A stretch of 64,000 nt of DNA from a virus. Below are positions 16,157-32,040 of this stretch, piece by piece; the first letter of the stretch is position 1, and every line of letters begins with the position of its first letter. Below the pieces are notes generated by a model. The model searched no databases. It was given only the letters and a program-made list of their open reading frames with translations, and was not told where the DNA came from. The stretch covers positions 43,508 through 107,507 of the IMG/VR virus record IMGVR_UViG_3300033183_000299. One strand, written 5' to 3'. Made by a program: the position numbers and the translations under genes.

Positions 16157-16297
16157 TTAAAAGATTTCACATGCTCCACCGCCACAAGCGATCTCGCCCG
16201 ACAGATCAGTTTCATCTGTTGTCTCTATAACTAGATCCAAGTCAACGTTTTTGACCAAAGAGAGCATCTTTTCATAAGTCTCAGCATCGCAGTCTTC
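16157..16297 (-). pseudogene. stranded duplicate of the RNR 3' end (46 codons + stop)
   Basis: EDCDAETYEKML...IACGGGACEIF vs EDCSKQEYEEML...IACGGGSCEIF; 35/46 aa identical; no own start or SD. Confidence 0.85.
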
Positions 16298-16933: not shown

Positions 16934-17977
16934 CTAGAAGATCTCGCAAGATCCTCCTCCACAAGCTATCTCCCCTGACAAATCAGTTTCGTCTGTTGTC
17001 TCTACAACTAGATCCAAGTTCACACTTTTCAGTAATGGAAGCATTTCTTCATACTCTTGCTTGGAGCAGTCCTCGTAAGGAGCCTGCACGTAACTGTGGT
17101 TGGAATAAGGAAGAACCGACAATCCATTGTAAACACCTCGATTACTCCACATCCACTCTCCAACGGTTTCCCATTCATCATCCTTGATGGATACTGTTGC
17201 TGAAACGTTATGGGTATTGCTTCCCTTCTTGTGACCTGGCTTGATCCATTCGGTAGAAACTTTCTTTACTCTCTCGAGCAAATCAAGGGCGCTCTCATGG
17301 CGCGTAATAGCCCCTTCAGGAGCTTTTTGAGGCACAGATAGGATAGCAGTGTCGTGTGGTCGGAAACGGTCGTCCTCGATGAGCTCAGGCAGGTTATTGA
17401 CCAAGTATGAGTAGATTGCCTCATTCTTTCCAACACGCAAGCGGCGAATGTAATAATCATTGTGCCATGCGTGGATACCACTTGACGTTCCAAGAGTGAG
17501 AGAAGTTGTCCCTGCGGGCTTAACGCATGTCTGGCGGGCAGCTTTGTTAATGCCGATTTGCATAGCAACTTGACGGTTCATCTTAGATACCTCCAAAGAA
17601 GCCTCAGTCATGTTGAGACCCAACACACCACCAGAAGCAATACCAGTCATTGATACTCCGATCAAAGCATCTTTCTCGGTTGTACGTTGCCAAACTGGTC
17701 GCAGGTAATGAAAGTCTGTGTATGAGGCTTGGAGAGTTCCAATGAAAGAAGCAGCACGAGAACGAGCATTAAGTTCGTCTTGAGTATTCACATCTGATAC
17801 ATTGATCTCGACCAAGTTACAGAATTGGAAAGGTCGGAGACCGATCTCGCAATTATGAACCAACAGTCCGTTGGCAAAAAAGTTGTGATTCTTTCTAACT
17901 TGAATATCGTAAACATCTCTGTTTTTTTCTACTGTAATTTTTTTAATTTTTGTTCTGTTATAAGTTCTTGTTTCCAT
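16934..17977 (-). CDS. nrdJ: class II (B12) ribonucleotide reductase, C-terminal part with IntC
   Basis: CEIGLRPFQFCNLVE, CVKPAGTTS, C-terminal ACGGGSCEIF; AGGAG SD. Confidence 0.92.
   Translation of the reverse strand: METRTYNRTKIKKITVEKNRDVYDIQVRKNHNFFANGLLVHNCEIGLRPFQFCNLVEINVSDVNTQDELNARSRAASFIGTLQASYTDFHYLRPVWQRTTEKDALIGVSMTGIASGGVLGLNMTEASLEVSKMNRQVAMQIGINKAARQTCVKPAGTTSLTLGTSSGIHAWHNDYYIRRLRVGKNEAIYSYLVNNLPELIEDDRFRPHDTAILSVPQKAPEGAITRHESALDLLERVKKVSTEWIKPGHKKGSNTHNVSATVSIKDDEWETVGEWMWSNRGVYNGLSVLPYSNHSYVQAPYEDCSKQEYEEMLPLLKSVNLDLVVETTDETDLSGEIACGGGSCEIF
17852..17977 (-). other. split intein C-fragment (42 aa)
   Basis: VYDIQVRKNHNFFANGLLVHN followed by Cys+1. Confidence 0.92.
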
Positions 17978-26647: not shown

Positions 26648-27802
26648 CTATCTAAATAAAGACTCATCTCTTGCGAACGGAATTACCGCTCTACTTACGA
26701 GGTCTATTTCTATATCTTCCCAAACTACAAACTTGTAGAACCCCTTTGGTTTTCTTCCCTTATTGGCGGTCTTGAATACTTCATTCCACTTTCTCATAAG
26801 AGCTGCTGCCCCGTACGTACCATAATTGTTAGAAGAGTCATACTTCAAAATTGAGACCCAGTTATTCAAATCTGATAATCTTTCATCAGAATCTTTTACT
26901 CGCTTAACGAATTCAACAAGTCGATCGTGACCAGATTTACCAGAAGGCAATCGATTTTGAGACGCGTGAATAAATGCTGTTAACGCAAACAAAGTTGAAA
27001 CTGGAATCTCTTCAATATCAGGAAACGATGCTTTAATAACATCAATTGCCTTTACAATATTGGGACCAGAACGCGAACCCCACTTTGTACCCTTGGTATC
27101 TCCAGAAATATCGTTTCCAAGAATCTTTTGTAAGATACCTAGACCCTCAATCAAAGGATTTTCGACACTTGAATGACTATTATGAAGGCTAATTCCAGCA
27201 GACTTTGATAAGGCAAAGGTATCTAAAGCCTTCTTGTGTCTAGCACTGTTTGAATTGGCCAAGTCTTGCAAAAATTTATCATACTTTGAAATTGCTGCTG
27301 AGTTTTTATCTTGCGTTATAAACAGTCTTCTGCTTTCATCGGCCGAAGAGACATCCCGTATCATGGCTGGAACTAGATAAATTCCATTCATAATAGCGGC
27401 GTGACTTCTACCGCCGCCATCTCGAATAATATAGCATTCTTCAGAAGGAACGTAATCAATGCTGATGGGTTCAAATAATTTTGGATCAAAGTTCTTCGCC
27501 ATGCTTAGAATCTTTGCTTTTCGACCCTCTTCCAGAAGAGCATTTCTTTGTCCCCAATCTTCTCTGATCTCTGCATCTCTGATATCAAATAGAGGGAATG
27601 GATATTTTTCATGCATTACTGACTTGAAGCTTGGAGTTATTTTCGAGACTTTTTGCTTTGTTCTCCAATCCTTAAACTCATCATGGATTTCTGGATAGTC
27701 CTCTAAGTTTTCTTCAATTGTGTATCGAATTTTTCGATCACTTGTTTGTTCTTTGTACTGCTCTGTTACTTCAGATGTATATTGTTTTTTAGCTATTTTC
27801 AT
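26648..27802 (-). CDS. ParB/Srx-like domain protein
   Basis: FDPKLFEPISI...IIRDGGGRSHAA (variant of DGxHR); tentative. Confidence 0.5.
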   Translation of the reverse strand: MKIAKKQYTSEVTEQYKEQTSDRKIRYTIEENLEDYPEIHDEFKDWRTKQKVSKITPSFKSVMHEKYPFPLFDIRDAEIREDWGQRNALLEEGRKAKILSMAKNFDPKLFEPISIDYVPSEECYIIRDGGGRSHAAIMNGIYLVPAMIRDVSSADESRRLFITQDKNSAAISKYDKFLQDLANSNSARHKKALDTFALSKSAGISLHNSHSSVENPLIEGLGILQKILGNDISGDTKGTKWGSRSGPNIVKAIDVIKASFPDIEEIPVSTLFALTAFIHASQNRLPSGKSGHDRLVEFVKRVKDSDERLSDLNNWVSILKYDSSNNYGTYGAAALMRKWNEVFKTANKGRKPKGFYKFVVWEDIEIDLVSRAVIPFARDESLFR

Positions 27803-27883
27803 AATTACTCCATTGTTATAGCTACTTGGTAAACCCACCAAGTTTTTATTGAACAATTCAATTGTTCATAAATCGTATAAATC

Positions 27884-27923
27884 AAAAATAAAGTGCCGTT
27901 CCTTTGACCTAGGGCGAACGGCA
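27884..27923 (-). terminator. intrinsic terminator after ssb
   Basis: TGCCGTTC/GAACGGCA stem followed by a T-rich tail. Confidence 0.65.
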
Positions 27924-27953
27924 TTTCCCTTAACAACACAGGAGGTCTATGAC

Positions 27954-28730
27954 TTATTCGTCTTGCATAAAGGCTGCGAATGCTGCGTCTACGCTTTCTC
28001 CGGTTTTCTTTGTGAACTTTTGAGTCTCACTAGAAGATGACTCTGCCGAATTGTCGGAGGACAGATAACCATCCAGCAAAGTCTGTACTTCTTCAGTTGT
28101 CTTAACTTCAAACAAGTTGTCGATGTTAGGAACAGAGTCCAAAAGATCTTGACAGTCAGCAATATTATCATCACACAACACAGATGGTCGACGACGAGGC
28201 TGCAATGCTGTCTTAGGGAAGGAACCAGGTGTTCCTGGGATGGTATAAGTTAACTTAATATCTGTACCTGTTTGAGGGTCTGTGATGTCTCCATAATCAG
28301 GATCTAAAACATATCCCAAAAGGGTTTCGTAAGCAGTCTTACCATAAGCCCAGATTTTTACACCTTCAGACTCGCTTCCACGAACCAAGACAGGTGAATA
28401 ATAGCGTTTACGAGCAAACAACTTTTTTGCTTCATTCTTGAGATTTTGATCGTCACTTTCAACACCGTCACGCCATAATTTAGAGGCAAAGTCACAGATT
28501 GGACATTCACCACCGTCATTACGTTTGTTACAGTAGATCCCAGGGTTTTTTCCTACATTATAGTGGAAATGAAACTCACGGAACGGGTCACCATCTTGTG
28601 TAGGTAAGATTCGCACATGTTGAGTTCCTGCTTGAGGTTTCCACATGGTTGACTTACGTCCACCGGTAGCTTTGCCGCCGTTTTTTGATTGTTCGAGCTT
28701 TGCTCGCATTGCTTCAAGATTAATAGCCAT
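27954..28730 (-). CDS. single-stranded DNA-binding protein (T4 gp32-like)
   Basis: VRILP...HY...C...CPIC Zn site, RYY..V, YGK, DITDP..G.D; acidic tail. Confidence 0.85.
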   Translation of the reverse strand: MAINLEAMRAKLEQSKNGGKATGGRKSTMWKPQAGTQHVRILPTQDGDPFREFHFHYNVGKNPGIYCNKRNDGGECPICDFASKLWRDGVESDDQNLKNEAKKLFARKRYYSPVLVRGSESEGVKIWAYGKTAYETLLGYVLDPDYGDITDPQTGTDIKLTYTIPGTPGSFPKTALQPRRRPSVLCDDNIADCQDLLDSVPNIDNLFEVKTTEEVQTLLDGYLSSDNSAESSSSETQKFTKKTGESVDAAFAAFMQDE

Positions 28731-28824
28731 AATATACTCCATTGTTAGTCTATTTTATTGTGTTTTATCACTAAGGCAGGCAGGGTTTCAACCATACCCC
28801 CGTTGTAATTCGTTTTATATTATT

Positions 28825-28853
28825 AATATAACATATTCAAAAAGGTTTGTCAA
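28825..28853 (-). promoter_or_regulatory. sigma70-like promoter for ssb
   Basis: TTGACA-N17-TATATT. Confidence 0.8.
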
Positions 28854-28922
28854 GTAAAAAAAGTAAAAATTTCAAAAAATGGTCAAAAAAAAATTTTGAG
28901 GATTTTGGGTTTTTGAAAAAAA

Positions 28923-28959
28923 TAGGCGCTCTAGGATTTGAACCTAGGACCAACATCTA
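28923..28959 (-). pseudogene. tRNA-Ile2-derived remnant (T arm + 3' acceptor strand)
   Basis: TTGGTC CTAGG TTCAAAT CCTAG AGCGCCTA vs intact TTGGTC GCTGG TTCGAAT CCAGC AGCGCCTA. Confidence 0.8.
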
Positions 28960-28960
28960 T

Positions 28961-28989
28961 ATTATAACATAATCAAAATGGTTTGTCAA
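28961..28989 (-). promoter_or_regulatory. sigma70 consensus promoter directly upstream of the tRNA remnant
   Basis: TTGACA-N17-TATAAT, perfect. Confidence 0.85.
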
Positions 28990-29072
28990 GTAAAAAAGTA
29001 AAGTTTTTTTAAAAAAGTTTATGAAGAACTTCATATGTCCTCTACTTACTAATAGCGATGGAGGATAGTCGT

Positions 29073-29447
29073 ATGAAAAAATGTATTGTTTGTGAAAAAG
29101 AACTGGTTGGGCGCCAGACAAAATATTGCTCAAGCAAATGCAAAGGCAAAGATACAAATGTTAAGCACCAAAATTATCAAGCACAGCAAAAAAGAGGCAT
29201 AGAGAGAAGAACTCTATTGATTGATAAGCTTGGGGGGAAATGTTGTAAATGTGGGTACAATAGAAACTCTAGCGCTCTCGCCTTTCATCACACCGATGCT
29301 TCTAGCAAGTCTTTCCAAATTGATTTAAGACAGTGCTCTAACAGAAGCGAAAAGATCCTACTAGAAGAGGCAAAGAAATGCATACTAGTTTGTCACAACT
29401 GCCATGCTGAGATACATCACCCACATTTCAACATCAAAGAAGAATAG
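29073..29447 (+). CDS. HNH homing endonuclease
   Basis: CIVC..KYCSSKC Zn finger; CCKCG...FHH...KCILVCHNCHAEIH; GGAGG SD at 29060-29064; stop overlaps the 3' end of tRNA-Ile2. Confidence 0.85.
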   Translation: MKKCIVCEKELVGRQTKYCSSKCKGKDTNVKHQNYQAQQKRGIERRTLLIDKLGGKCCKCGYNRNSSALAFHHTDASSKSFQIDLRQCSNRSEKILLEEAKKCILVCHNCHAEIHHPHFNIKEE

Positions 29448-29517
29448 GCGCTGCTGGATTCGAACCAGCGACCAAGAATTTATGAGATTCCTGCGCTAAC
29501 CGCTGCGCCAAGCGCCC
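29445..29517 (-). tRNA. tRNA-Ile2/Met (anticodon CAT), most like Ile2
   Basis: 73-nt cloverleaf GGGCGCT...GGAAT CTCATAA ATTCT...GCTGG TTCGAAT CCAGC AGCGCCT A; CCA not encoded. Confidence 0.9.
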
Positions 29518-29555
29518 AAGGCTGCCTCCAAATTAATGGAGGCATTATAAAAGAC

Positions 29556-29879
29556 TTAAGCAGAGAAGGTCCTCCATTCTTTCAGCGAAGGAGCCTTAGA
29601 GCCAGGTCTTAACTCAAGGCAAAATTGAGCATAAGCATAGTGTTCGTCATCTGAGTCATTCTCATACTTGTGCCCATTTGTTTGTCCATTGTTTTCCAAC
29701 CTGTCTTGTTCTTCCGACCAGACTTCGTATTCTTCAATAAGATTGCTTAACTTTCTCACTTCAGAGCTGCATATAATCAAGGGTGCTTCCAGGTCTCTTA
29801 GTTTCTTGAGTTTGTTTACACTCAAATCAAATTTTTCCAAGATTTCTCCAAATTTTTGTATTTCTTCTGATAGATTCAT
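29556..29879 (-). CDS. hypothetical protein
   Basis: MNLSEEIQKF start with GGAGA SD; the longer ORF-track start runs through the tRNA remnant. Confidence 0.6.
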   Translation of the reverse strand: MNLSEEIQKFGEILEKFDLSVNKLKKLRDLEAPLIICSSEVRKLSNLIEEYEVWSEEQDRLENNGQTNGHKYENDSDDEHYAYAQFCLELRPGSKAPSLKEWRTFSA

Positions 29880-30016
29880 AGTTTTTTCTCCATTTTTCAA
29901 TTTTAATAATCTATGCTCTATAGTTTTTTTGGAGGTACCCACAGAAACCCTCTCATTTCTCCGTTCCTTAGCGACCCTGCTTCCATTATCAGAAATCAGA
30001 ACGAAAACATAAAAAA

Positions 30017-30054
30017 GTACACCCGACAGGATTCGAACCTGTGACCTAGTGTAC
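30017..30054 (-). pseudogene. tRNA-Arg-derived remnant / minihelix-like RNA
   Basis: GTACAC TAGGTC ACAGG TTCGAAT CCTGT CGG GTGTAC followed by T-run; matches the 3' end of the tRNA at 30775. Confidence 0.8.
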
Positions 30055-30059
30055 AATAT

Positions 30060-30088
30060 ATTATAACATAGTTTTGATAACTTGTCAA
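30060..30088 (-). promoter_or_regulatory. sigma70 consensus promoter directly upstream of the tRNA remnant
   Basis: TTGACA-N17-TATAAT, perfect; the -35 box overlaps the HNH stop. Confidence 0.85.
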
Positions 30089-30675
30089 GTATTTTTATAA
30101 GATTTTTGATATCTCTCTTTTCTGCAAGAATTTTTGTTTTTAGATTTGTAAGTCTCTAATTGAGAATCACAATTGTGACAGATTAGTCTGAGATTATTTC
30201 TCATATTGTTAGATGCTCGACCATCAATATGATCCAAGATAAAATTCAACTCTTTCCCATTCCACTCATTCTTCATTCCGCAAATATCACAACGCTCCGC
30301 CTGCTCTTTCAATATCCAAGGTTTTACAAAACGCATGTTTCTATCATTACAATATTCTTCTTGATTGCTTATGAAGTGAAGATATTTTTTTTGCCTTCTA
30401 TGTTCAGACGAACAAAAATGAGAGCAGAACTTGGCATTCTTGCTAGGGCTTTTAAATTCACTCTTACAATACATACATTCCTTATGTCTTCCTAGACCAG
30501 CATTGTGAGGTTTCCAGCCAGAAGGATTCTTCTGTCTTATTGGAAGGGTTATTCCCAACTTTTTAGAAACTTTTCTAATATATGCTCCAGAGACACCATA
30601 GAGTTTTCCGATTTTCTCATAAGATAGATTTTCTTCAAAGATCAGTTTTTCTAATTCTTCTTTTTTGTATTTCAT
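30085..30675 (-). CDS. HNH homing endonuclease with N-terminal HTH and Zn finger
   Basis: CDICG...LDHIDGRASNNMRNNLRLICHNCDSQ. Confidence 0.88.
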   Translation of the reverse strand: MKYKKEELEKLIFEENLSYEKIGKLYGVSGAYIRKVSKKLGITLPIRQKNPSGWKPHNAGLGRHKECMYCKSEFKSPSKNAKFCSHFCSSEHRRQKKYLHFISNQEEYCNDRNMRFVKPWILKEQAERCDICGMKNEWNGKELNFILDHIDGRASNNMRNNLRLICHNCDSQLETYKSKNKNSCRKERYQKSYKNT

Positions 30676-30710
30676 AACATTTCCTCCGCTATGAAATAAA
30701 TAGACTTAGA

Positions 30711-30765
30711 AAAAACATTTGAACCAATAAGCACCAAAAAAATAAGACAAACTTATTGGTTCAAA
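30711..30765 (-). terminator. 14-bp inverted repeat terminator after tRNA-Arg
   Basis: TTTGAACCAATAAG / CTTATTGGTTCAAA followed by TGTTTTTT. Confidence 0.65.
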
Positions 30766-30774
30766 TAATAGAAG

Positions 30775-30857
30775 TACACCAGGTAGGATTCGAACCTACG
30801 ATGGGAGTTACCCGTCGGCTTAGAAGGCCGATGCCATATCCACTAGGCGACTGGTGC
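30775..30857 (-). tRNA. tRNA-Arg (anticodon TCT) with 15-nt variable region
   Basis: GCACCAG/CTGGTGT acceptor, TCGGC CTTCTAA GCCGA anticodon arm, GTAGG TTCGAAT CCTAC T arm; 83 nt. Confidence 0.88.
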
Positions 30858-30859
30858 AT

Positions 30860-30887
30860 AAAAAGCGGCCTTTTGAAGGGTAGCCGC
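30860..30887 (-). terminator. terminator-like hairpin upstream of tRNA-Arg
   Basis: GCGGC/GCCGC stem followed by TTTTT. Confidence 0.5.
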
Positions 30888-30900
30888 AAACCCAAAACGC

Positions 30901-31164
30901 TTAAAATAAACTAATGCTTACATCTTGAGTATTAGAAGTAACATCACCAATCTGAGTATTGGAATTAAATGTACGATACTGTTGACGATCAATATCAAAT
31001 ACGGTTTCATAACCAGGCTGTAGATTGCGCTCTCGCAATGTTGAAGGAAACACTCCAGATGGCGCCTCAGAAGGACGTACAAAGTTCATAGTACGTTGTT
31101 CTCCACGTTGGGTTACAAAAGTCCCAGTGTATACAGTCATTGATTGTGAATTATTGTTGCTCAT
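30901..31164 (-). CDS. hypothetical protein (possible SH3/WYL-like beta barrel)
   Basis: 87 aa, GGAGG SD, VFDIDRQQYRTF motif. Confidence 0.65.
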   Translation of the reverse strand: MSNNNSQSMTVYTGTFVTQRGEQRTMNFVRPSEAPSGVFPSTLRERNLQPGYETVFDIDRQQYRTFNSNTQIGDVTSNTQDVSISLF

Positions 31165-31209
31165 AAAACCTCCATTTTGTTTTGAGTCATTAATTGTTGT
31201 TGTTTATAT

Positions 31210-31238
31210 AATATAGCATGTTTTGTTCATGTTGTCAA
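31210..31238 (-). promoter_or_regulatory. sigma70-like promoter
   Basis: TTGACA-N17-TATATT. Confidence 0.75.
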
Positions 31239-31246
31239 GTATTTTT

Positions 31247-31324
31247 TTAAAGTTTTTCTTCCAGCCAATACCAAAGCCACGTAAATGCGAAAACGAACAC
31301 CGTCGTTCCTAATATTAATTCCAT
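31247..31324 (-). CDS. 25-aa single-pass membrane peptide
   Basis: MELILGTTVFVFAFTWLWYWLEEKL; GAGG SD; own promoter. Confidence 0.55.
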   Translation of the reverse strand: MELILGTTVFVFAFTWLWYWLEEKL

Positions 31325-31354
31325 TTTGCTTTCCTCTGTTTTTCTTATACTTAT

Positions 31355-31383
31355 AATATAACATATCTGAGATGGTTTGTCAA
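31355..31383 (-). promoter_or_regulatory. sigma70-like promoter
   Basis: TTGACA-N17-TATATT; overlaps the stop of the 31380-31874 ORF. Confidence 0.75.
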
Positions 31384-31874
31384 GTAAAAAGGCAAACTTT
31401 TTTTAGAAATTCTTTCTCTTCTTCTAGTCTCTCGAGCTTTTGGGCATAATACTCAGTATCAAAATATTGCTTCGCCTTTCCTTCGTTCAGCCACTTCTTT
31501 CTGTCCTCGATATAAGCTAAAATTTCTTCTTCTGTATCGTAAAGGTAAGTTGAGTAGTCCATTCCTTCTCGGATTGCTTTCTCATATTGTGGAAACAGCT
31601 TGATGGCTTCTTTATAGACTGAGCGGTAGTGTTTCGCATCTTCTAAGAATGTCTCTTCACTAAATGAGACGTATACTCTCGGAGATCCAAACTTTTCTTT
31701 TGTTTGAAGAACGCTAATATTTGATAACGGCGTTATCTCTGTTGTGTAGGGACTGTGTCTCGGACCAATCAAAGCATATCCGATCCAGTTTGCGATAGTG
31801 CTAATGATTTGGAAGTAGTCTTTGTGCTCTTCGCTTTCACTTCCCCACATGTTGTAATAAATTTGTTCAGTCAT
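31380..31874 (-). CDS. hypothetical protein
   Basis: 164 aa, GGAGG SD. Confidence 0.65.
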   Translation of the reverse strand: MTEQIYYNMWGSESEEHKDYFQIISTIANWIGYALIGPRHSPYTTEITPLSNISVLQTKEKFGSPRVYVSFSEETFLEDAKHYRSVYKEAIKLFPQYEKAIREGMDYSTYLYDTEEEILAYIEDRKKWLNEGKAKQYFDTEYYAQKLERLEEEKEFLKKVCLFT

Positions 31875-32040
31875 TAATCCTCCAGTATTGACCTGTCCAC
31901 TCTAGTTTTGATAAATTAATTTTTATTTTTTCATCGGTAATATAAAGTATGATTGCTTCATCGTTTCTTATTTTCTCTATTTGACCCAGCAAGTTTTCTA
32001 TTGGGTGCTTTACTTGATCTTTTAGCTTAGGTGTCTTCAT
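31867..32040 (-). CDS. hypothetical protein
   Basis: Manual translation, 57 aa (MKTPKLKDQVKHPI...); fills the gap with overlapping stop/start. Confidence 0.5.
   Translation of the reverse strand: MKTPKLKDQVKHPIENLLGQIEKIRNDEAIILYITDEKIKINLSKLEWTGQYWRIND

Follow-up and report, generated by a model that had tools for sequence, protein, structure and literature searches.

The window analysed here, 64 kb of the 183,930-bp IMG/VR virus record IMGVR_UViG_3300033183_000299 of an uncultured marine phage, contains a free-standing HNH endonuclease gene (HNH1) that lies between an intact tRNA(CAU) gene and an orphan second copy of a tRNA 3' end, hereafter the remnant. The arrangement is probably a homing scar, in which a foreign cassette made of tRNA, HNH1 and promoter overwrote the resident tRNA-Ile2 gene and stranded its 3' end. 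An earlier note on this DNA had proposed a homing-type HNH cassette that duplicates a tRNA 3' half; the idea stands, with the correction that the cassette supplies a whole foreign tRNA and not the 3' half only. The anatomy of the cassette, the association of HNH gene and remnant and the signature of mobility can be read directly from the window and its relatives.

Anatomy of the locus

Each feature described in the earlier note is present where it had been placed. On the minus strand, from high to low coordinates, the order is tRNA(CAU), antisense HNH1, inverted repeat, promoter P2, filler, remnant, a run of seven T (T7 run), T-rich spacer, promoter P1 and a gp32-like gene, with the following positions in the window.

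29445-29517, minus strand: intact tRNA(CAU) gene, Ile2-like, with no encoded CCA, a foreign replacement allele (ARAGORN; Rfam tRNA, 65.7 bits)
29073-29447, plus strand: HNH1, gene of a 124-amino-acid (aa) zinc-ribbon and HNH endonuclease, antisense to the tRNA (PHROG HNH families, best E 7e-18)
29021-29034, no strand: inverted repeat ATGAAGAACTTCAT, 14 nt, between P2 and the HNH1 start (sequence reading; kept in the second carrier, contig L210)
28961-28989, minus strand: promoter P2, TTGACA-17-TATAAT with TG before the -10 box (12/12 matches)
28954-28960, minus strand: 7-base junction filler ATAGATG, from the -10 box to the remnant (contains the predicted +1)
28923-28953, minus strand: remnant, tRNA positions 43-73, i.e. 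variable loop, T arm, 3' acceptor strand and discriminator (31 bases)
28743-28922, minus strand: putative right homology arm, i.e. resident T-run, spacer, gp32 promoter P1 and 5' untranslated region (colinear with the relative L009)
28825-28853, minus strand: gp32 promoter P1 (11/12)
27954-28742, minus strand: gp32-like single-strand DNA-binding protein gene, the backbone marker (Pfam gp32, E 4e-15)

The intact tRNA gene, described before as abutting the HNH1 stop codon, in fact overlaps it by 3 nt, the TAG (29445-29447) being the complement of tRNA positions 71-73. The perfect sigma-70 promoter reported ahead of the tRNA 3' copy is likewise there, the 7-nt filler separating the two. HNH1 is thus flanked by duplicate tRNA 3' ends, at 29445-29475 and 28923-28953, and a 23-nt degenerate pattern of this end finds exactly these 2 sites in the 64 kb against 0 expected. 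The intact end reads TTGGTC GCTGG TTCGAAT CCAGC AGCGCCT A and the remnant TTGGTC CTAGG TTCAAAT CCTAG AGCGCCT A; of the 7 bases that differ, 6 make up three compensatory pairs of the T stem, in agreement with the compensatory changes first noticed in the earlier note.

The intact gene has a CAT anticodon, an anticodon stem (GGAAT/ATTCT) without the three G-C pairs of initiators, and paired positions 1-72, and the best Escherichia coli matches of the phage tRNA(CAU) are annotated tRNA-Ile (78-80%). These properties support a tRNA-Ile2-like (CAU) rather than an initiator identity, so that the Ile2 label given before can be kept.

A further claim, that TAGATGTT in front of the remnant is a surviving 5' acceptor strand joined to it by a deletion at TTGG, was not supported. 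Its pairing with the acceptor strand reaches 7/8 only with two G-U pairs counted, and TAGATGT shares 2/7 bases with the true 5' acceptor strand GGGCGCT. The 7/8 helix is absent from the predicted fold of the Ile2 remnant, which is no better than that of shuffled sequences (z = -1.0), and the L210 remnant folds with another, weak pairing (z = -1.6). The pairing of TAGATGTT is at chance level. An internal deletion at TTGG was rejected, the promoter homology and the filler being unlike a 5' acceptor strand, and a minihelix formed by the Ile2 remnant was rejected on the two fold z-scores.

Relatives without the HNH gene and the chimeric make-up of the locus

A gp32-anchored search yielded 80 related marine loci (L numbers), whose common order is a small open reading frame (ORF; 'ORF87'), tRNA-Arg(UCU), often tRNA(CAU), the T-rich spacer, the promoter and gp32. 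In 10 of them (L009, L013, L014, L015, L033, L035, L037, L038, L047 and L049) tRNA(CAU) stands directly before the spacer, with neither HNH gene nor remnant. The comparison with HNH-less relatives proposed in the earlier note returns a single intact tRNA, and the outcome named there as a refutation, a remnant kept by relatives that lack the HNH gene, was seen in none of about 80 loci: when these gp32-anchored relatives were scanned for T loops not belonging to a called tRNA, the sole remnant was that of L016, which has an HNH gene. A megablast of the locus against 50,697 GenBank phages gave no match; for this uncultured lineage, the closest gp32 of a cultured phage has 36% identity.

The backbone of the window is closest to L009, with 95% identity of the gp32 protein and 98% of ORF87. 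Window positions 31400-30859 are 94.5% identical to L009, positions 28951-27900 are colinear with it at 93.6%, and between the spacer behind the remnant and that of L009 there is 1 mismatch in 60 nt. The intact tRNA, on the other hand, is identical to that of L014 (73/73) and matches L009 at 47/73 positions, while the gp32 region of L014 is only 78.7% identical to that of the window. From the tRNA 5' end onward, identity is of the L014 type (window 29521-29437 versus L014 1986-2070); what the cassette supplies is the whole tRNA, not a 3' portion fused to a native 5' part.

The promoter tells the same story. P2 is a member of a family of repeated phage promoters, TTTTTACTTGACAAACC..TGTTATAWT, that is conserved along roughly 45 nt; its 35-nt core is that of the L014 gp32 promoter (35/35; 93% over 60 nt), with homology stopping after TATAATA. 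By these matches P2 is a copy of the gp32 promoter of the donor lineage. In L014 itself tRNA and gp32 promoter are separated by a 58-nt spacer, whose place is taken by HNH1 in the window. The foreign origin of both tRNA and promoter is therefore plain from the relatives.

The remnant has a different affinity. Together with the following T (32 bases; all counts out of 32 were made by eye on printed sequences), it agrees with the full-length L035 and L037 alleles at 31/32 positions of their 3' half. Since each copy matches alleles of relatives (L014 on the one hand, L035/L037 on the other), the two are natural alleles and not a gene and its drifting duplicate. The decay of a simple tandem duplicate was rejected on the compensatory allele differences and on flanks that stem from different lineages.

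The phage tRNA(CAU) alleles of L009-L049 are themselves mosaics, in which acceptor stems (GGGCGCT, GGGCACT, GGGGACT), anticodon stems and T stems are variously combined; this suggests frequent recombination within the 73-nt gene.

A second carrier and the signature of mobility

The same cassette occurs in L210, a 2,853-bp contig reached through the identical protein cluster of HNH1. Its junction is that of the window (ATAGGTGT joined to TGGTC), with a filler that reads ATAGGTG instead of ATAGATG. Between the two genomes identity is 95.9% in the tRNA, 95.6% in HNH1, 88.7% in the P2 region, 89.7% in the remnant, 84.8% in spacer and P1 and 77.7% in gp32. Identity falling with distance from HNH1 is the signature expected of homing with co-conversion, to judge from this alignment. 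HNH1 differs between the two by 12 synonymous and 5 non-synonymous changes and is, therefore, a maintained gene.

The presence of the HNH gene is sporadic, 10 syntenic relatives being without it and only L210 sharing HNH1. Scans of viral and metagenome contigs with the HNH1 protein found no close copy (at most 57% identity), and exposed the tRNA-linked relatives described below. An exact-pattern scan of IMG/VR (-10 box, short gap, T loop) returned 110 stretches, among which only L205, of the L016 type, is relevant, the others being unrelated tRNAs or chance matches.

Ancestry and likely target of HNH1

The HNH1 translation contains an HH..N..H motif and two CxxC pairs, and its ATG (29073) is preceded at 7 nt by a GGAGGA Shine-Dalgarno sequence. 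The next-nearest homologs are bacterial, full length and 53-63% identical. In 12/12 bacterial loci, with identities of 49-61%, the HNH homolog lies antisense within a group I intron that splits tRNA(CAU) after U33, always in the same layout: 5' exon, antisense HNH ORF, ribozyme core and a 3' exon starting with CATAA. Flanked by the 5' splice site and the ribozyme core, the intron ORF encodes a 120-aa zinc-ribbon/HNH protein; its stop is at this splice site or close to it (directly adjacent in L215, at 17 nt in L211). Four metagenome loci tested against RF00028 score 60-74 bits; L211, with 38.9 bits, falls below the family threshold. The spliced bacterial tRNA, like the phage tRNA, is close to the E. 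coli gene annotated as tRNA-Ile(CAT). The tRNA-Ile2-like loci split in this way are L215:2243-2886 (minus strand), L211, L213, L214, L216-L219, L221, L223, L224 and L226. Antisense endonuclease ORFs in bacterial tRNA introns are not known to have been described before.

In a maximum-likelihood tree, in which the row of the L016 HNH was disregarded, HNH1 nests among the HNH proteins of tRNA-Ile introns, as sister to L211 with 91/93 support; on this phylogenetic evidence, the ancestry of HNH1 is with tRNA-Ile. More distant phage homologs are found in tRNA clusters, often beside tRNA-Asn, with a tRNA within 400 bp in 27/59 loci. Endonucleases of introns are established to cleave alleles devoid of the intron, close to where it inserts. 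For HNH1, therefore, the anticodon-loop region of the tRNA-Ile2 gene is the likely target.

A twin cassette on tRNA-Arg

About 1 kb upstream, a second cassette of the same design is found on tRNA-Arg(UCU).

30014-30857, minus strand: twin cassette on tRNA-Arg(UCU)
30775-30857, minus strand: foreign long-arm tRNA-Arg(UCU)
30085-30675, minus strand: HNH2, on the same strand as tRNA-Arg (PHROG HNH families)
30060-30088, minus strand: twin-cassette promoter (12/12)
30014-30046, minus strand: 33-nt 3' remnant of the resident tRNA-Arg (orphan T-arm scan, whole genome)

The Arg remnant is identical to the 3' half of the intact tRNA-Arg of L009 (33/33). Its junction with the promoter recurs in L016 and L210, with a different HNH gene and tRNA-Arg allele. 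Both cassettes show a donor break 7-13 nt past the -10 box and a recipient break at tRNA position 43-45. For the Arg remnant a closed hairpin with a U-run behind it is predicted (z = -2.9 and -2.8).

The variable region of the cassette tRNA-Arg(UCU) measures about 13 nt, and the same long-arm allele is found without an HNH gene in L015, L024 and L027. An ORF of 76-94 aa between ORF87 and tRNA-Arg in L009:718-976 and L210:2396-2626 is missing from the window; the HNH2 cassette apparently displaced it on taking the place of this stretch.

The earlier note had also likened the locus to the 3' end of the RNR gene. At the level of observation the parallel is a good one: the last 46 codons of RNR occur twice, at 16934-17074 and 16157-16297 (minus strand), with about 35/46 identical and both copies ending in CEIF and the stop.

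Proposed history and mechanism

The unit that moved would be a whole tRNA-Ile2(CAU) allele with antisense HNH1 and a copy of a gp32 promoter. It may have been assembled in an L014-like phage, where HNH1 would have replaced a spacer of some 55 nt between tRNA and gp32 promoter, and the block of tRNA, HNH1 and promoter would then have entered an L009-like backbone. The right join was presumably irregular, the donor ending 7 nt past the -10 box of P2 and being fused to position 43 of the recipient tRNA-Ile2; positions 1-42 of the resident gene would have been lost and positions 43-73 left behind. It is because these positions were stranded by such a join that the remnant can be called a scar.

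During mixed infection, HNH1 would nick or cut HNH-less tRNA-Ile2 alleles in the region from the anticodon to the variable loop, and the break would be repaired by recombination from the cassette-bearing genome, with remnant, spacer and gp32 acting as the right homology arm. The carrier itself would be protected by a remnant devoid of the anticodon arm and by a supplied allele with divergent anticodon and T stems. A target around the anticodon loop would indeed explain both the safety of the remnant, which has nothing before position 43, and a breakpoint just downstream of the anticodon arm. The anticodon stem of the carrier allele (GGAAT/ATTCT) is the most divergent among the phage alleles, which is compatible with immunity and nothing more. 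As for P2, it most likely merely adds transcription into the gp32 promoter region.

Evaluation of the proposed homing scar and of other explanations

Several observations weigh against a homing scar as just outlined. The remnant matches the tRNA of L009, the nearest backbone, at only about 23/32 positions; being L035-like, it may move along with the cassette instead of being local. The shared break position in two independent cassettes is a poor fit to pure accident, and could reflect a cut site or selection. The co-conversion gradient comes from one genome pair, on which the inference of homing depends, and the cassette is rare, HNH1 being present in only two other contigs. The 16-row clade that encloses HNH1 has only 80/52 support and a midpoint root. 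Target and immunity are deduced from ancestry and layout, and the supplied tRNA allele is also found without HNH (L014, L012), as would fit an immune or donor allele but is no proof of it.

A different explanation holds that promoter and remnant form a small RNA gene kept for a purpose, HNH1 being incidental: P2 would make a T-arm/acceptor minihelix of about 45 nt ending at the U-run, a product that could lure away host defences aimed at tRNAs or be a substrate of RNase P or the CCA-adding enzyme. The 12/12 promoter only 7 nt upstream of the remnant and the T7 run after it are in keeping with this idea, as are a layout with two origins (Arg and Ile2) that three genomes retain, and the closed hairpin and U-run of the Arg version; furthermore, phage tRNAs can counter tRNA-cleaving defences (PMC13096335). 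The T arm, with 0/17 bases differing between the window and L210, also seems conserved, but about 1.5 changes are expected in 17 nt, so that zero is not significant. Moreover, the U-run is the resident tRNA's own trailer, the fold of the Ile2 remnant is poor in both genomes, with a closing pairing that differs between them, and in the gp32-anchored loci the remnant never occurs without an HNH gene. The sequences of remnant and promoter are fully accounted for by ancestry (an L035-type allele and an L014-type gp32 promoter), and the small RNA gene is, on balance, unlikely.

Of similarly low probability is recombination among repeated promoter cassettes, as in the promoter-early stem-loop (PeSL) elements of T4-type phages, with HNH1 as a passenger and the breakpoint in the tRNA as an accident of illegitimate joining. 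The promoter family is indeed highly repeated and conserved over some 45 nt, each cassette ends in a promoter copy, the remnant lies between the direct-repeat promoters P2 and P1, and modular shuffling through PeSL is established in T4-type phages (PMC2839356). However, the junction lies past the promoter homology, inside the tRNA gene, and at position 43-45 in two cassettes with different HNH genes; the identity peak is on HNH gene and tRNA, not on the promoters, and the HNH1 lineage is specifically linked to tRNA-Ile(CAU) genes. PeSL-like recombination may nevertheless have helped to assemble the cassette.

A composite of homing and small RNA gene seems no less doubtful: a tRNA-intron endonuclease, now free-standing in the phage, would carry a complete resistant tRNA instead of a ribozyme, and thereby keep the tRNA even though its target site is broken; at the same time, the promoter-remnant unit would be kept for a useful short tRNA-like RNA, which might mislead host defences directed at tRNAs, or stabilize gp32 transcripts at their 5' end or attenuate them. 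The repeated break at 43-45 would then mark a shared cut site or selection for that RNA.

Far less probable still is a decayed intron, i.e. a group I intron of a phage tRNA-Ile2 that lost its ribozyme, gained a promoter and had an intact tRNA recruited upstream: although HNH1 nests among intron-encoded forms and the bacterial topology is shared (upstream tRNA piece, abutting antisense HNH, non-coding block of about 100-200 nt, 3' tRNA piece), RF00028 has no match at E <= 1 within positions 27500-32000, no intron breaks the tRNA, the remnant begins at 43 and not at 34, HNH1 abuts position 73 of a complete tRNA and not position 33, what fills the non-coding block is a gp32 promoter copy, and searches of related loci found no intron-bearing phage relative. 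Duplication of an integrase attachment site was rejected, the only ORF being the HNH gene, with no integrase, and the tRNA ends differing at 7/32 positions.

Neighbouring features

On the plus strand, at 28938-28965, the complements of the remnant T loop (TTGAAC) and of the P2 -10 region (TATTAT) form a 9/12 promoter-like site that faces HNH1 from a distance of about 100 nt, possibly by chance. Between the Arg remnant and tRNA-Ile2 there is one further ORF.

29556-29879, minus strand: 107-aa ORF (no Pfam or PHROG match)

It has a good Shine-Dalgarno sequence and a terminator-like hairpin, and is missing from L009 and L210. In the place that tRNA(CAU) has in other relatives, L023 contains after tRNA-Arg-CCA a conserved element of about 250 nt (L023:5548-5800, plus strand), which ends in a tRNA-like acceptor/T-arm domain, GCTCGA..GGTTCAAATCCCTAC TCGAGC A. 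ARAGORN makes no call and Rfam finds no match in this element, which is similar in about 25 relatives (L019, L024, L027, L028, L034, L036, L040, L053, L055, L059, L066-L071 and others).

Relation to known systems

T4 SegB recognizes the T-loop motif GGTTCRANTCC in tRNA genes and drives their inheritance (PMC2330249). Like HNH1, it is a free-standing endonuclease encoded among phage tRNA genes, missing from syntenic relatives (PMC2330249; PMC13096335), and its gene is inherited with flanking tRNA genes. SegB is, however, a GIY-YIG enzyme with demonstrated cleavage, whereas HNH1 belongs to the HNH class and its cleavage is what we infer; in addition, descriptions of SegB include neither an orphaned tRNA 3' half nor a replacement allele nor a copied promoter.

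Replacement of gene 3' ends by mobile endonuclease ORFs, which strand the native copy, is known from Allomyces atp6 and from Glomus atp6, atp9, cox2 and nad3 (PMC3630166). As in the phage, a gene end is duplicated around the endonuclease ORF, with a functional copy upstream that is foreign and divergent, and the downstream orphan matches relatives (Arg, 33/33 with L009; Ile2, 31/32 with L035). That the orphan is the native copy holds for Arg, by its match with the intact L009 gene; the Ile2 orphan is of the L035 type and not the allele of the nearest backbone. The fungal cases concern mitochondrial protein genes, LAGLIDADG or GIY-YIG enzymes and in-frame fusion of the 3' part only; in the phage the gene encodes a tRNA and is supplied whole, the HNH gene is antisense and a promoter copy stands at the junction. 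Under the homing-scar reading, the pattern of invasion is a known one (SegB homing; fungal mitochondrial 3'-end replacement), met here on a tRNA gene with replacement of the whole tRNA.

The Azoarcus-type group I intron of bacterial tRNA-Ile(CAU) resides in the same tRNA species (PMC13168695). The intron-encoded relatives of HNH1 are, like HNH1, antisense, with a stop abutting an upstream tRNA piece; the phage locus differs in having no ribozyme, an uninterrupted tRNA and a downstream piece that starts from 43 instead of 34. The Azoarcus intron itself is not known to contain an ORF.

With PeSL cassettes (PMC2839356) the locus shares repeated strong sigma-70-type promoters that bound variable modules and can be substrates of recombination. 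The promoter repeat is present, with no terminator-like site called at P2 or in the remnant, and the breakpoint differs in being inside the tRNA gene and outside promoter homology. Finally, insertion of integrase elements into tRNA genes (PMC9897764) similarly restores an intact tRNA and leaves an orphan fragment at the far end, but here there is no integrase, the element measures about 570 bp, the two ends are different alleles and not an identical attachment core, and the whole tRNA is replaced.

Significance

The locus offers a natural example of how a homing endonuclease may invade the gene of an essential small RNA without an intron, for which empty sites, a donor-like lineage and a second carrier are at hand. 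On this reading the invader brings a replacement gene, and the old 3' end is left as a scar and homology arm. Three mostly separate literatures are thereby joined, namely those on SegB-type homing in phage tRNA clusters, on 3'-end replacement by mobile ORFs in fungal mitochondria and on group I introns in tRNA genes. For annotators, promoter-proximal tRNA halves in phages may be scars of invasion, and biochemists are offered a small HNH enzyme that probably targets a tRNA gene. The finding also suggests why, in these marine phages, tRNA alleles combine acceptor, anticodon and T stems into mosaics.

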